This document shows, piece after piece, positions 30,156-33,656 of a stretch of 64,000 nt of DNA. Within the stretch, counting starts at the first letter, position 1. Each line of letters starts with the position of its first letter. The notes under the pieces were generated by a model. That model saw nothing but the letters and a program-made list of their open reading frames with translations, was not told the DNA's origin and did not search any database. Made by a program: the position numbers and the translations under genes. The DNA lies in contig JASNYI010000001.1 in the NCBI GenBank assembly GCA_048500275.1, positions 484,341-548,340 of the forward strand, given 5' to 3'. Source of the DNA: Thermoanaerobaculia bacterium. Lineage in GTDB: Bacteria; Acidobacteriota; Thermoanaerobaculia; UBA5066.

Positions 30156-30183
30156 CCAGAATAGAAAATCAAGACCTGACCCC
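30156..30183 (-). repeat. AT-rich 28-bp repeat, copy 3 (plus strand CCAGAATAGAAAATCAAGACCTGACCCC)
   Basis: It is the reverse complement of copies 1 and 2. It overlaps the 3' end of the methyltransferase CDS and supplies codons ...D G V R S plus the TGA stop. A 32-mer identity with copy 4 extends into ATCC. Confidence 0.8.
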
Positions 30184-30864
30184 ATCCTGCCCACCCTGCC
30201 GCCCGGTCACGAGCTCGAAGCCGTGGAGGTAGCCGGCTCCGACGTCCTCGACGCGCACGTCGGCGAGTCCCGCGCCGGAAAGGAGCCCGGCGACCTCGGC
30301 CCCGTCGCAGGGGTCCACGACCGCGCCCCGCGTCATGCCGACGACCGCGACGGCGAGCCGCTCCTGCAGCCTGTCGAGGGACCTCTTCCATCGCGGTCCG
30401 CCGCCGCTCGTGAGGACGACGAGACGGCCTCCGGGTTGGAGACGGGAGGCGACGTCGGCGACGAACGCGGCCCGCTCCGTCCGCGGGACGAGGTAGAGGA
30501 CGTCCACGATCACGGCCTGGTCGAACGCCCTCTCCGCGACGCTCCCGACGTCGCCGGTGCGAAAAGCCCGGCGCGGAGTCTCCCCCACCCAGGCCCTGGC
30601 CCTCTCCACCTTCCGCTCGTCCGGGTCCACGCCGAGGTAGGTCCCGGCGTAGCCGAGCCCGTCGAGAAGGTGCGCGAGGAGCCCCGGCCCGCACCCGACG
30701 TCGAGGAGCGCAGACCCGTCGAGCGCGAGGGCGCCCGCGACGCGGGCCCAGGGTGCGCTCGAGAGGCGCGCGGCCAGGTGCGCCCGCGCGGGGAGCGGGA
30801 GGGCCCGCGACGCGCGGACGACCGCGAGGACTCCCGGCACGGCGGCCTTCGACCCGGCGCTCAT
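30169..30864 (-). CDS. Class I SAM-dependent methyltransferase
   Basis: The Gly-rich motif LDVGCGPGLL and the acidic-loop motif YLGVDPDE are present. The start is ATG 30864 (MSAGSK...), within the longer ORF 30169..31119. The C-terminal DGVRS* is encoded by repeat copy 3. Confidence 0.7.
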   Translation of the reverse strand: MSAGSKAAVPGVLAVVRASRALPLPARAHLAARLSSAPWARVAGALALDGSALLDVGCGPGLLAHLLDGLGYAGTYLGVDPDERKVERARAWVGETPRRAFRTGDVGSVAERAFDQAVIVDVLYLVPRTERAAFVADVASRLQPGGRLVVLTSGGGPRWKRSLDRLQERLAVAVVGMTRGAVVDPCDGAEVAGLLSGAGLADVRVEDVGAGYLHGFELVTGRQGGQDGVRS

Positions 30865-30910
30865 CCGGCGTAGAGTAATCTCGGCGAGGCGCGGAGCGAG
30901 GCATTCCGGG

Positions 30911-32071
30911 ATGAGAGAGGCGAGCTTTCCCTGGCCGTGGAGCGGGCCGCAGAACCGCAGGCTGACTCTCGCCGTCTTCGCCTGGCTCCTCCTCGTCAAC
31001 CTCTGGGGGCTCGTCGCCGTCCACCTCCTCCCCATCTCCTGGCGGTCGCCGTGGGACGAGTCGGCGAACGCCCGCGCGCCGCTCTTCGCGCGATACGACT
31101 CCGGCTGGTACGACTCCATCGTCCGCCACGGGTACCCGCCTCCGCCCGGCCTCGGGGAGGAGTCGGCGCACGCCTTCTTTCCCCTCTACCCGATGGCCGC
31201 CCGGGCCCTCCACCTCGTCACCGGGATCGACTCGTTCCGCGCCGCGCTCCTCGTCACCTGGGCCGCCCTCTTCCTCGCCGTCCCTCTCCTCGTGGAGGAG
31301 GCGCGCGAGCGGTTCGGCGACGCGAAGGCCCGCAGCGCCCTGCCGTTCCTCCTCCTCTACCCGGTCGCCTTCTTCCTCGCGGCCGTCTACACCGAGTCGC
31401 TCTTCCTCCTCCTCGCCCTCCTCGCGTTCCGCTCCGTCCGGCGCGGGAGACTGCTCCCCGCGCTCCTCTTCGGGGTCCTCCTCGGCCTCACGCGCGCCCC
31501 GGCGGCGGCGGTCGGGCCCGGGCTCGCCCTCGCCTGGTGGCTCAGGGGAGACGAAGGCGGGAGGCGATGGACGGGTGCGGCGCTCCTCCTCGGGGCGCCC
31601 CTCGCCGGGGTCCTGGGGTACGTCTTCGGCATCGGGGCGCTGAAGGGCGAGACGATGCTCTTCTTCCGCTCGATGAGCGCGTGGCGGCACTCCGCGGGCG
31701 ACCCCCTCTCCGGTGCCGTCTCGTTCTTCCTCGAGCCGGTCCGGATGTGGAAGAGCGGCTGGTTCCTCGAGCACCCCGGGGCGATCGCCCCCTTCGTCCA
31801 CTTCGGGCTCTTCGCCTTCCTCGGAGCCGTGCAGCTGAAGCTGCGCCGCTTCGCCGACGCCGCCTGGACGGCCAGCGCGCTCCTCCTGCCGGTCCTGACG
31901 GGGACCGCCGACGGCACCCCGCGCTACACCCTGACGATCTACCCGGGGCATTTCGCCGCCGCGACCCTCTGCGAAGGGCGGCCGTGGCTGAAGGTCCTGT
32001 GGCTCGGCGGCTCCCTCGCGATCCTCCTCCTCAACTCCTCCTTCTTCGTCAACTGGCACTTCGTGTCGTGA
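30911..32071 (+). CDS. Integral membrane GT-C-fold glycosyltransferase (PIG-V / mannosyltransferase-like)
   Basis: The 386-aa protein has about 9-10 TM segments. The motif RYDSGWYDSIVRHGY resembles the D-x-x-WY-x-x-I-x-x-x-GY loop motif of PIG-V/GT-C mannosyltransferases. It is the first gene of a three-gene operon with overlapping or adjacent boundaries. Confidence 0.6.
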   Translation: MREASFPWPWSGPQNRRLTLAVFAWLLLVNLWGLVAVHLLPISWRSPWDESANARAPLFARYDSGWYDSIVRHGYPPPPGLGEESAHAFFPLYPMAARALHLVTGIDSFRAALLVTWAALFLAVPLLVEEARERFGDAKARSALPFLLLYPVAFFLAAVYTESLFLLLALLAFRSVRRGRLLPALLFGVLLGLTRAPAAAVGPGLALAWWLRGDEGGRRWTGAALLLGAPLAGVLGYVFGIGALKGETMLFFRSMSAWRHSAGDPLSGAVSFFLEPVRMWKSGWFLEHPGAIAPFVHFGLFAFLGAVQLKLRRFADAAWTASALLLPVLTGTADGTPRYTLTIYPGHFAAATLCEGRPWLKVLWLGGSLAILLLNSSFFVNWHFVS

Positions 32072-32802
32072 CCGTGCGAGGCCCCCGTTCCGTCTCCCTC
32101 GTCGTCCCGATGCGCAACGAGGCGCGCAGCCTGCCCCACCTCCTCGACGTCGCGCTCGACGCCCTTCCGCGCCACGCCGACGACTGGGAGATCGTCCTCG
32201 TGGACGACGCCTCGGAGGACGAGACCGTCGCGGTGGCCGAGGCCCGCGCCGCCGCCGAGCCGCGGATCCGCCTGCTGAGGCACGCCGCGAATCGCGGGCT
32301 GGGAGGGGCGCTGAAGTCAGCCTTCGCCGGGGCGACGAAGGAGTGGGTCCTCTACAGCGACTGCGACCTCCCCTGGGACCTGGAGGAGACGGGCCGGGTC
32401 TTTCGCGCCGCGGAGCTGACCGGGGCCGACGTCGTCTCCGGCTACCGGCACGACCGCACCGGGGAGGGAGTGCTCCGGACCCTCTACTCCTTCCTCTACA
32501 ACGGTCTCGTCCACGTCGCGTTCGCCTTCCCGATCCGCGACGTCAACTTCTCCTGCAAGCTCGTCCGCCGGTGGCTCCTCGAGGGGCTTCCGCTCGAGAG
32601 CGAGGGCTCGTTCGTCGACGCCGAGCTCCTCGTGAGGCTCCGCAACCGCGGGGCCGTCATTCAGCAGGTCGGGCTCGACTACTTCCCGAGGACGCGCGGG
32701 GTCTCCACCCTCTCGTCCCCCCGGACGATCCTCCGCATCCTGCGGGATTTCGCCCGGCTCACGCCGACGCTGCGCGCCGAGAGGCGGCGCCTCTCCCGGT
32801 GA
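32068..32802 (+). CDS. Family 2 glycosyltransferase (dolichol/polyprenyl-phosphate sugar synthase-like; DPM1/ArnC-like)
   Basis: The N-terminal motif SLVVPMRNEARSL matches the SxVIPxYNE of GT2 enzymes. The DxD motif is LVDDASEDET, followed by EIVLVDD. The GTG start overlaps the upstream stop (GTGA). The protein is about 244 aa, in the size class of polyprenyl-phosphate hexose synthases. Confidence 0.75.
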   Translation: MTVRGPRSVSLVVPMRNEARSLPHLLDVALDALPRHADDWEIVLVDDASEDETVAVAEARAAAEPRIRLLRHAANRGLGGALKSAFAGATKEWVLYSDCDLPWDLEETGRVFRAAELTGADVVSGYRHDRTGEGVLRTLYSFLYNGLVHVAFAFPIRDVNFSCKLVRRWLLEGLPLESEGSFVDAELLVRLRNRGAVIQQVGLDYFPRTRGVSTLSSPRTILRILRDFARLTPTLRAERRRLSR

Positions 32803-33656
32803 CGCGGCTCGTCCTGACCGCCGACGACGCGGGCCTCGCCGGCCCCCTCTCGCGCCGCATCGCCTCTCTCCTCGCCTCCGGCCGGCTCACGGCGACGAGC
32901 CTCCTCCCGTGCGGTAAGGCCTTCGACGTCGCGGTCGCGGCGCTCCGCGCCGCGGGCGTCGCCGAGGCCGGCGTCCACCTCTGCGCGGTCGGCGGCGAGA
33001 CGCCGCTCTCTCCGGCGTCGGCCGTCCCTACGATGGCTCCCGGCGGCCGGTTCCCGCGCGCCTGGCCCGCGGTCGCGGCGCGCGCCGCGTCGTTCCGCCT
33101 TCGCGCCGCGGAGGTCGAGAGGGAGTGGGAGGCGCAGGTCGCCGCCGTCCGCGAGGCCGGGCTGCGGGTGACGCACCTCGACTCGCACCAGCACCTGCAC
33201 CTCCTGCCGGCGCTCCTGCCGGTCGCCCTGTCCCTCGCGCGCCGCTTCGACGTGCCGTTCGTAAGGGCGCCGCGCGGCGACGACCCTGCGGCCGTCGGCG
33301 TTCCTGCGAGCGCGGCGGCCAGGGCGAGGGCGCGGCTCCTGTCCCTCTTTGGCGCCGCAGCCCGCCGCCGCGTCGCTGCCGCGGGCCTGCCGGAGCCACC
33401 GCGCGTCCTCGGCCTCGCCGAGGCCGGAGGCATGACGCTCCCGCGCTGGACGGCCCTCCTCGAGGGGCTGCCTGGAGAAGGGACGTTCGAGGTCGTCCTC
33501 CACCCGGGAGCGGACGACCCCGCGGCCGCCGCCCGCTACCCCTGGGGATACGGGTGGGAAGCCGAATCCCGGGCGCTCGAAAGCGAAGAGCTCGCTGTGC
33601 TCCTCGCGCGGCATGGCGTCGAGACCGCCCCCTTTTCCCTCGTCGCGAGAGGCTGA
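32799..33656 (+). CDS. YdjC/ChbG family carbohydrate deacetylase-like protein
   Basis: The LVLTADDAGL N-terminus and the HLDSHQHLHLLP metal-binding motif are characteristic of YdjC-family deacetylases (HpnK, NaxD and LgmC are members). The GTG start overlaps the GT2 stop (GTGA). Confidence 0.7.
   Translation: MTRLVLTADDAGLAGPLSRRIASLLASGRLTATSLLPCGKAFDVAVAALRAAGVAEAGVHLCAVGGETPLSPASAVPTMAPGGRFPRAWPAVAARAASFRLRAAEVEREWEAQVAAVREAGLRVTHLDSHQHLHLLPALLPVALSLARRFDVPFVRAPRGDDPAAVGVPASAAARARARLLSLFGAAARRRVAAAGLPEPPRVLGLAEAGGMTLPRWTALLEGLPGEGTFEVVLHPGADDPAAAARYPWGYGWEAESRALESEELAVLLARHGVETAPFSLVARG

Follow-up and report, generated by a model that had tools for sequence, protein, structure and literature searches.

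Decoration of the cell envelope with lipid-linked amino sugars, as carried out by the Arn, Lgm and Flm/NaxD systems, is a main route to resistance against cationic peptides and polymyxins. To our knowledge, all the characterised versions use transferases of the ArnT family, and envelope chemistry has been little studied in Acidobacteriota, a phylum dominant in soil and sediment. Here we describe a locus of four genes, encoding a GT-C-fold glycosyltransferase (hereafter GT-C), a small GT2-family glycosyltransferase (GT2), a YdjC-family de-N-acetylase (YdjC) and an S-adenosylmethionine (SAM)-dependent methyltransferase (MT), found in a 64,000-nucleotide stretch (the window) from a Thermoanaerobaculia bacterium of this phylum (assembly GCA_048500275.1, contig JASNYI010000001.1, positions 484,341 to 548,340). 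On balance, the four genes probably work as a single module, by which a modified amino sugar is built on a lipid carrier and attached to the cell envelope. This points to another family of compact GT-Cs, very large and uncharacterised, as doing the equivalent job in Acidobacteriota.

In the Arn pathway, a GT2 loads the amino sugar on undecaprenyl phosphate (Und-P), a cytoplasmic deacylase unmasks it, and the product is flipped and transferred by a GT-C; ArnD is a CE4 family enzyme, not a YdjC, and ArnT belongs to GT83/PMT_2. In the Flm pathway, a GT2 makes Und-P-N-acetylhexosamine (Und-P-HexNAc), NaxD deacetylates it and a GT-C transfers the sugar at the periplasmic face. LgmA is ArnC-like and LgmC YdjC-like, FlmK and LgmB are ArnT-like, while LgmD, the fourth Lgm gene product, is not a methyltransferase. 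In mycobacteria, PpgS (Rv3631), a soluble GT2 of about 240 aa, makes polyprenyl-phosphate-N-acetylgalactosamine (GalNAc), and the GT-C Rv3779 delivers galactosamine (GalN) outside, to arabinogalactan; we know of no deacetylase assigned to this pathway in mycobacteria. The rhizobial NodC/NodB/NodS enzymes provide for the de-N-acetylation of N-acetylglucosamine (GlcNAc), followed by the SAM-dependent N-methylation of the amine by a small class I methyltransferase. The Bordetella LgmA-D proteins are encoded by an operon, and the inner-membrane LgmB adds glucosamine (GlcN) to the lipid A phosphates (PMC11401268). According to a review, NaxD, a YdjC enzyme, deacetylates Und-P-GalNAc before GalN is transferred to lipid A (PMC11279074). 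In gpgSDF of P. aeruginosa and hexSDF of C. difficile, a synthase and a deacetylase turn a GlcNAc-lipid into a cationic GlcN-lipid (PMC11483062, PMC10128005).

Gene structure and conserved linkage

The elements of the locus are listed below. Mechanical lists of open reading frames are noisy, because the G+C content of the window is about 74%, and the four gene boundaries were fixed by start-codon inspection and ortholog alignments; they match exactly the boundaries and the outer limits (30169-33656) given in a preliminary description of the same DNA.

30169-30864, minus strand: MT gene, class I SAM-dependent methyltransferase, 231 aa
30865-30910, no strand: divergent intergenic region between the MT and GT-C genes, 46 bp, sequence read
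30911-32071, plus strand: GT-C gene, polytopic GT-C-fold glycosyltransferase, 386 aa
32068-32802, plus strand: GT2 gene, small soluble GT2 (GT-A fold), 244 aa, GTG start
32799-33656, plus strand: YdjC gene, YdjC-family de-N-acetylase, 285 aa, GTG start

The GTG start of the GT2 gene overlaps the stop codon of the GT-C gene by 4 nt (GTGA), and the GTG start of the YdjC gene overlaps the GT2 stop codon in the same way (4 nt, GTGA), as read directly in the sequence. The three genes are therefore translationally coupled, as had been proposed. The MT and GT-C genes are transcribed divergently, and the 46 bp between them are presumed to be a shared regulatory region; neither a sigma-70-like promoter nor an intrinsic terminator was found by a pattern scan of positions 29800-34400.

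By scanning the GTDB species representatives, 315 loci with a relative of the GT-C were identified; 80 of them were fetched. These were sorted by tblastn, using the proteins of the window and those of a paralogous locus. All the relatives come from metagenome-assembled genomes (MAGs) of uncultured Acidobacteriota, and the names of homologues place the window itself in a Thermoanaerobaculia/Holophagales-like group of this phylum. The arrangement observed in the window, with MT on the minus strand followed by GT-C, GT2 and YdjC (type A), is complete in 23 loci, whose GT-Cs are 55-74% identical to the window protein, and is cut by contig ends in 5 more. The start/stop abutment is kept in the closest type A relatives. 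The window and two type A loci with gene calls, L086 and L087, have different genes next to the module, and the four genes therefore seem to constitute an autonomous unit. What persists most in the GT-C family is the adjacency of MT and GT-C: in L041 the pair is found with no GT2 or YdjC within 6 kb, and in L087 a second divergent pair, formed by an MT (minus strand) and a PIG-V-like GT-C (plus strand), is located at 16873-18830, 7 kb downstream of the complete type A module on the same contig.

A sister clade of GT-Cs, 43-48% identical to the window GT-C, occupies one syntenic slot, in the order LigD genes, GT-C, DUF4442, radical SAM gene. Seven of these loci (type B: L048, L051, L053-L057) contain a convergent operon GT2-YdjC-MT, which ends with a translationally coupled group II decarboxylase dependent on pyridoxal phosphate (PLP) (PF00282, 4.7e-28; e.g. 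L051:7266-8624, minus strand). Twelve complete loci (type C) contain, together with GT-C and MT, a DegT aminotransferase, a GT2 and a small cupin; they are the following.

Type C loci: L081:8001-12287, L030, L032, L033, L036, L039, L040, L043, L045, L060, L066, L068

The type C aminotransferase matches the perosamine synthetase 3bn1 in the PDB (3e-114), and the type C GT2 is 26% identical to the window GT2 over 220 residues. L042 is a hybrid of the type B and type C cassettes. A mycaminose-type reading of type C (cupin 3,4-ketoisomerase, DegT, N,N-dimethyltransferase) was also considered, and was discarded: the aminotransferase is perosamine-synthase-like, and nothing FdtA/QdtA-like is matched by the cupin in the PDB.

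As judged from the predicted families, there is an apparent swap of cassettes between two amino-sugar routes within one syntenic slot, and orthologous GT-Cs would be served by two non-homologous routes to a free-amine sugar, either de-N-acetylation or transamination at the level of the nucleotide sugar, each with a DPM1-like GT2 and an MT. This exchange argues for a GT2 that supplies the GT-C with its charged lipid donor, for an amino sugar as the cargo and for methylation as part of the pathway, and it is the strongest evidence obtained for each of these points. The MT is regarded as a member of the module because the sister-clade cassettes carry either GT2-YdjC-MT or perosamine-synthase-GT2-MT; its participation in the pathway, only hinted at in the preliminary description, is strengthened by the rearranged loci, where GT2-YdjC-MT is the operon order.

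A few kb upstream of the sister-clade GT-C (L081:1152-5322 and the equivalent position in types B and C), on the far side of the LigD genes, two further genes are conserved, one for a DUF2298 membrane protein (712 aa) and one for a GT4 glycosyltransferase. In L081, a second methyltransferase is located beside them, and a 1643-aa PMT/DUF2298/NHL protein follows. These surroundings may represent a larger glycosylation neighbourhood.

Orphan GT-C paralogues, showing 49-51% identity, are found directly downstream of an efflux operon composed of TetR, a membrane fusion protein and a 1480-aa fusion of resistance-nodulation-division and outer membrane efflux proteins, in 10 out of 10 loci.

Orphan GT-C paralogue loci: L024, L026, L027, L029, L035, L059, L082-L085

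The MAGs of two of them, L059 and L024, also harbour the type A modules L001 and L002, so that several transferases, including one placed beside genes of drug or stress efflux, may draw on a single donor pathway. An EamA protein, whose gene overlaps the stop codon of the orphan paralogue in 4 of the 10 loci, was considered as the lacking flippase and rejected, being absent where the MAG also has type A.

Predicted proteins and their surroundings in the window

The GT-C is predicted to have about 9-11 transmembrane helices. Its AlphaFold2 model (pLDDT 91.2, pTM 0.92) shows no soluble periplasmic domain and, when compared to the PDB by using Foldseek, matches exclusively GT-C-fold proteins at a probability of at least 0.85; they include ALG12, ALG9, STT3, AglB, ArnT, EmbC, PIG-U and PimE. 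The GT-C fold attributed to this polytopic protein in the preliminary description is thus confirmed by a confident model. TM-scores are only about 0.45-0.5, the best TMq (0.52) being that of ArnT, and the best E-values are obtained with ALG12 and ALG9, which depend on dolichyl-phosphate mannose (Dol-P-Man). No solved relative was found by a profile search against PDB sequences. Residue D63, within the motif ARxDSGWY of the first external loop, is invariant among 58 GT-C sequences.

In Pfam, the window GT-C matches PF04188 (PIG-V) at 2.9e-4; its 20.7 bits fall slightly short of the gathering score, 22.4. It has no match to PMT or PMT_2. PF04188 is matched at E<=0.01 by 33 of 58 homologues (best 3.6e-7), and a precomputed match is carried by some homologues, whereas PMT_2 is matched, weakly, by one of the 58; the protein is therefore better described as PIG-V-like than as ArnT-like, in agreement with what had been proposed. 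A profile of the GT-C collects 14,264, 8,936 and 421 clusters (50% identity) at E<=1e-3, 1e-10 and 1e-30, respectively, and family members are mostly 350-430 aa long. The few names assigned to them at source are "hypothetical" or wrong, those of distant relatives are uninformative, and no characterised bacterial PIG-V-like GT-C was found in the literature searched. By sequence, the protein belongs to a large, essentially uncharacterised family of compact GT-Cs.

The GT2 matches PF00535 (Glycos_transf_2) at 2.3e-25. Its top solved relatives by sequence are ArnC (9hwj, 1.4e-11), the Pyrococcus Dol-P-Man synthase (DPMS; 5mlz, 3.2e-11) and GtrB; the catalytic domain of DPMS is covered whole, residues 8-231 of the GT2 aligning with 24-246. 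Among the NCBIfam models, ArnC ranks first (NF007986, 56.9 bits against a cut-off of 529), and dolichyl-phosphate hexose transferases, AglJ and PpgS (17.4 bits, E 0.0023; cut-off 370) are also listed, all of them far below the equivalog cut-offs; no match to HpnI was found at E<=0.01. The acidic residues D46/D47 and D98xD100 are invariant across 34 loci. The protein has no transmembrane segment, and DPM1 and PpgS also lack one. The predicted family is that of the polyprenyl-phosphate glycosyltransferases (DPM1/ArnC/GtrB-like), and the assignment of the 244-aa protein to the size class of the polyprenyl-phosphate-sugar synthases holds. The possibility that it clusters with synthases of secreted polysaccharides was also checked: matches to such enzymes, e.g. 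PgaC, are confined to the N-terminal 100 residues or so, and the assignment is left standing.

The YdjC protein matches PF04794 at 3.3e-51 (175.1 bits, cut-off 29.7) over profile positions 1-265 of 266, and its ADD, GVHL and DSHxH motifs align with those of the solved YdjC proteins 2i5i, 7vi8, 8jqe and 2e67. Residues D9, D10, H60, D128, H130, H134 and H235 are invariant across 34 loci, so that the metal-binding Asp and His residues, whose loss would have spoken against the original assignment, are retained. The catalytic motif begins as early as residue 8, which leaves no room for a signal peptide, and the protein is cytoplasmic. It is predicted to be a PF04794 family de-N-acetylase with intact active-site motifs. 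The closest NCBIfam model is HpnK (TIGR03473; 130.9 bits, 5e-38), whose cut-off of 232.6 is missed.

The MT matches Methyltransf_25/11/23/12/31 in Pfam, with E-values from 1e-7 to 6e-12; it has no transmembrane or hydrophobic segment and no signal peptide, and is cytoplasmic. Its AlphaFold2 model (pLDDT 90.3) matches generic class I methyltransferases in Foldseek, including NodS (3ofk, TMt 0.71), AtmM, MitM and phosphatidylethanolamine N-methyltransferase. The likeness to NodS is to be read as an analogy, not as evidence, because the match is no better than those of dozens of class I enzymes. The methylation specificity was searched for by comparison with PDB sequences and by AlphaFold2 and Foldseek, but N-, O- and C-methylases score alike, and just a generic class I enzyme is recognised.

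The surroundings of the module are formed by unrelated housekeeping or redox genes. Among them are an outer membrane protein with beta-barrel/CarboxypepD_reg domains and an FAD/NAD oxidoreductase, a twin-arginine (Tat)-signal molybdopterin-type oxidoreductase with its 4Fe-4S partner, read from the translations, and, downstream of the module, OsmC and GYD genes. Further away, a cluster resembling the pfa genes for polyunsaturated fatty acid synthase is found, which is not conserved beside the GT-C module in other loci. A stand-alone DegT/DnrJ/EryC1 aminotransferase (Pfam 3.8e-110), 34% identical to the aminotransferase of the L081 cassette, was evaluated as a module gene and set aside: it is 10 kb off, beside groESL, with no evidence of linkage. 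The same holds for a MurA-like EPSP_synthase, a sigma-54 activator and a transporter of the ATP-binding cassette (ABC) type, considered as module partners, which take variable positions, are absent beside the window module and are taken as background synteny.

2972-19934, minus strand: pfa-like cluster, composed of the next three genes
2972-11836, minus strand: PfaC-like protein, 2954 aa, with two ketoacyl-synthase-type domains, AT, two FabA and a C-terminal glycerolipid acyltransferase (PF01553)
11840-18250, minus strand: PfaA-like protein, KS-AT-ACPx2-KR-DH
18285-19934, minus strand: PfaD-like enoyl reductase, NMO and FabD helical insert
21453-28547, minus strand: module flank
28699-30072, plus strand: module flank
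33697-34558: module flank
41690-43732: groES/groEL
43804-44949, minus strand: stand-alone DegT/DnrJ/EryC1 aminotransferase
45024-45854: rhomboid protease gene

Proposed pathway and rival explanations

Gene structure, families, intact catalytic motifs, cytoplasmic or membrane location and the conserved linkage of the four genes rest on the analyses above; substrates, acceptor, flippase and the order of deacetylation and methylation are, in what follows, those that we infer. On the inner membrane's cytoplasmic side, the GT2, which is the sole candidate donor synthase in the module, would transfer a HexNAc (GlcNAc or GalNAc) from a uridine diphosphate (UDP)-sugar onto polyprenyl phosphate. The cytoplasmic YdjC would take off the N-acetyl group, yielding a polyprenyl-phosphate-linked hexosamine (Pren-P-HexN), and the cytoplasmic MT would probably methylate the lipid-linked sugar; the gene order of type B, GT2-YdjC-MT, agrees with this order of reactions. 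The freed amine would be the most attractive target, and N-methylation is put forward tentatively, by analogy with NodB and NodS; O-methylation, the alternative, is equally possible on present evidence. A flippase encoded elsewhere would move the donor across the membrane, and, on the periplasmic side, the compact PIG-V-like GT-C would pass the sugar on to an acceptor anchored in the membrane. The GT-C enzymes characterised so far are known to take their sugar from donors linked to a lipid phosphate. A membrane-anchored acceptor is favoured because the GT-C has no soluble periplasmic domain, like the GT-Cs acting on lipid acceptors, PimE, ALG and ArnT. Candidates would be lipid A or the lipopolysaccharide core, another glycolipid and a lipid-linked glycan, lipid A itself being a doubtful choice. 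The most specific form of the scheme, in which a hexosamine would be unmasked and N-methylated on the polyprenyl-phosphate carrier and then put on lipid A or another outer-envelope lipid by the PIG-V-like GT-C, is rather unlikely as a whole; if it were true, some members of the GT-C family would be transferases of amino sugars that have converged in function with ArnT, and a new charge modification of the envelope would be at hand.

Several observations weigh against the proposed pathway. No flippase gene of the GtrA, SMR/ArnEF or MATE type is found in or next to the module, among the loci whose neighbours were examined, and three-component systems normally encode one (PMC11127046). HpnK, the curated model closest to the YdjC protein, has a hopanoid glycoside as its substrate instead of a polyprenyl-linked sugar, and neither the sugar nor the carrier specificity of the GT2 can be read from its sequence. 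Sequence and structure of the MT give no clue to its specificity; moreover, the MTs of the YdjC-type and perosamine-type cassettes have just the SAM-binding core in common, so that they were recruited independently and may act differently. The pathway gives no role to the PLP-dependent decarboxylase that is coupled to the MT in type B loci, and the envelopes of these organisms are known from MAG genes, not from chemistry.

The same genes can be read in other ways. In the eukaryotic synthesis of glycosylphosphatidylinositol (GPI), GlcNAc-phosphatidylinositol (GlcNAc-PI) is converted into GlcN-PI and then into Man-GlcN-PI. If a similar order were followed here, the GT2 would make a neutral Pren-P-hexose (e.g. 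Pren-P-Man), the YdjC would deacetylate a separate GlcNAc-lipid acceptor, produced by other genes, and the GT-C would glycosylate the resulting GlcN-lipid. PIG-V is indeed the sole sequence-family signal of the GT-C, ALG12 and ALG9 have the best Foldseek E-values, the alignment of the GT2 with Dol-P-Man synthase runs from end to end, and HexNAc and hexose donors are indistinguishable by sequence. However, the PIG-V score of the window protein is below the Pfam threshold, a GlcNAc-lipid synthase (PIG-A/GT4-like or other) is absent from the module, and in the sister clade a perosamine-synthase cassette takes the place of the YdjC cassette at the same position, which makes sense if the deacetylase serves the synthesis of the donor, not the preparation of the acceptor. 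We regard this order as quite improbable, and the bolder variant, in which these genes would serve to make a bacterial GlcN-lipid core similar to that of GPI, as highly improbable. A lipid could also be glycosylated directly, the GT2 putting GlcNAc on phosphatidylglycerol (like GpgS), on a glycolipid (like HexS) or on a hopanoid (like HpnI), with the YdjC acting as GpgD, HexD or HpnK and the GT-C and MT elaborating or handling the cationic lipid. HpnK as the best curated match of the YdjC (5e-38) is consistent with it, as are the operons of GlcN-lipid synthase and deacetylase established by experiment, gpgSDF (PMC11483062) and hexSDF (PMC10128005). Yet the HpnK score stays below its cut-off and the GT2 gives no HpnI match; HexS, HexD and HexF belong to other families, namely monogalactosyldiacylglycerol (MGDG) synthase, polysaccharide deacetylase and MprF-like flippase (PMC10128005), and no MprF-like gene is present in the module. 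The GT2 is a soluble DPM1-type protein of 244 aa whose solved relatives all take polyprenyl-phosphate acceptors, and the GT-C, which needs a Pren-P-sugar donor, would be left without a donor synthase. This explanation is decidedly unlikely.

A smaller departure from the proposed pathway would keep the same donor and replace the membrane lipid acceptor by a polysaccharide (O-antigen, capsule or exopolysaccharide) or a protein, as in Gtr-type systems. Systems of three components, namely a Pren-P-sugar synthase, a flippase and a GT-C, which glycosylate polymers in the periplasm, are widespread (PMC11127046), and type B and C loci retain the DUF2298 membrane protein and GT4 a few kb away. In the window, by contrast, no polysaccharide gene cluster surrounds the module, which is flanked by OsmC, GYD and FAD oxidoreductase genes; the flanks are not the same in the window as in L086 and L087, and the GT-C does not carry the extra periplasmic or carbohydrate-binding domain that several GT-Cs modifying polymers or proteins have, such as the Emb proteins, AftD and ORF12 (PMC11127046). 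A polymeric or protein acceptor is, on this evidence, unlikely. Finally, the four genes could be neighbours with no common function, the MT being generic and the linkage of the genes resting on genomic evidence; but two 4-nt start/stop overlaps, the joint presence of all four in 23 complete loci, whose GT-C identity goes as low as 55%, and a linkage that survives rearrangement make mere coincidence barely credible.

Comparison with known systems

The module resembles the Arn system (ArnB, ArnC, ArnD, ArnE/F, ArnT) in its GT2, for which ArnC is the best match in both NCBIfam and PDB sequences, and the perosamine-type cassette of type C parallels ArnB plus ArnC. It differs in that the ArnC score is far below the cut-off and in that ArnE/F-type flippase genes are absent. 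As in the Lgm and Flm/NaxD systems, a YdjC-type deacetylase is encoded beside an ArnC-like GT2, here with translational coupling, but there is no ArnT-like transferase, ArnT being one among many structural matches. From Bordetella Lgm the module differs also in gene order. Francisella FlmF2/NaxD/FlmK, like Acinetobacter NaxD, serve to add GalN to lipid A; the YdjC family and the active-site residues are found here as well, whereas the GT-C is PIG-V-like, an extra MT is conserved and the hosts are uncultured Acidobacteriota. In the literature searched, no paper was found that links a YdjC enzyme to a GT-C or to a polyprenyl-phosphate carrier.

The combination of a small soluble GT2 with a GT-C is shared with PpgS/Rv3779, although the match of the GT2 to the PpgS model is weak, the GT-C family differs and the deacetylase here has its gene in the operon. 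The substrates of the Nod enzymes are soluble chitooligosaccharides, and NodB is a CE4 enzyme. In gpgSDF and hexSDF the final lipid is glycosylated directly, and the pair of enzymes is accompanied by an MprF-like flippase (predicted for gpgF), not by a GT-C (PMC11483062, PMC10128005); in our module the third membrane protein is the GT-C, and no MprF-like gene is present. The families of GpgS, GpgD and GpgF are not named in PMC11483062, and these proteins were set against the module by their description. As to the HpnI/HpnK synthesis of hopanoid glucosamine, HpnK is the closest YdjC model, with its cut-off missed, and HpnI has no counterpart among the GT2 matches. The eukaryotic PIG-V (GT76), ALG9 and ALG12 are compact GT-C enzymes acting on lipid-anchored acceptors; PIG-V provides the sole sequence-family signal of the window GT-C, and ALG9 and ALG12 its best fold E-values; however, the sequence score is sub-threshold, TM-scores are about 0.45-0.5, no PDB profile match is found, and the operon points to an amino-sugar donor, not to mannose. 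Gtr-type three-component systems share the synthase and the GT-C, but their small or MATE membrane transporter is absent from the module and from its conserved flanks.

The resemblance to Lgm, Flm and Arn put forward in the preliminary description therefore stands for the logic of the pathway and for the GT2 and YdjC families, and does not extend to membership by family, since the GT-C is not ArnT-like, the ArnC and HpnK cut-offs are missed and the module has no flippase gene. The four-gene module is a small entry point, which could lead to a function for the GT-C family and reveal a new envelope modification. What is new here are the PIG-V-like transferase, the added methyltransferase and the swap between deacetylase and perosamine cassettes, not a categorically new mechanism: by analogy, the module would work like Lgm, Flm/NaxD and Arn without being a member of any of them.

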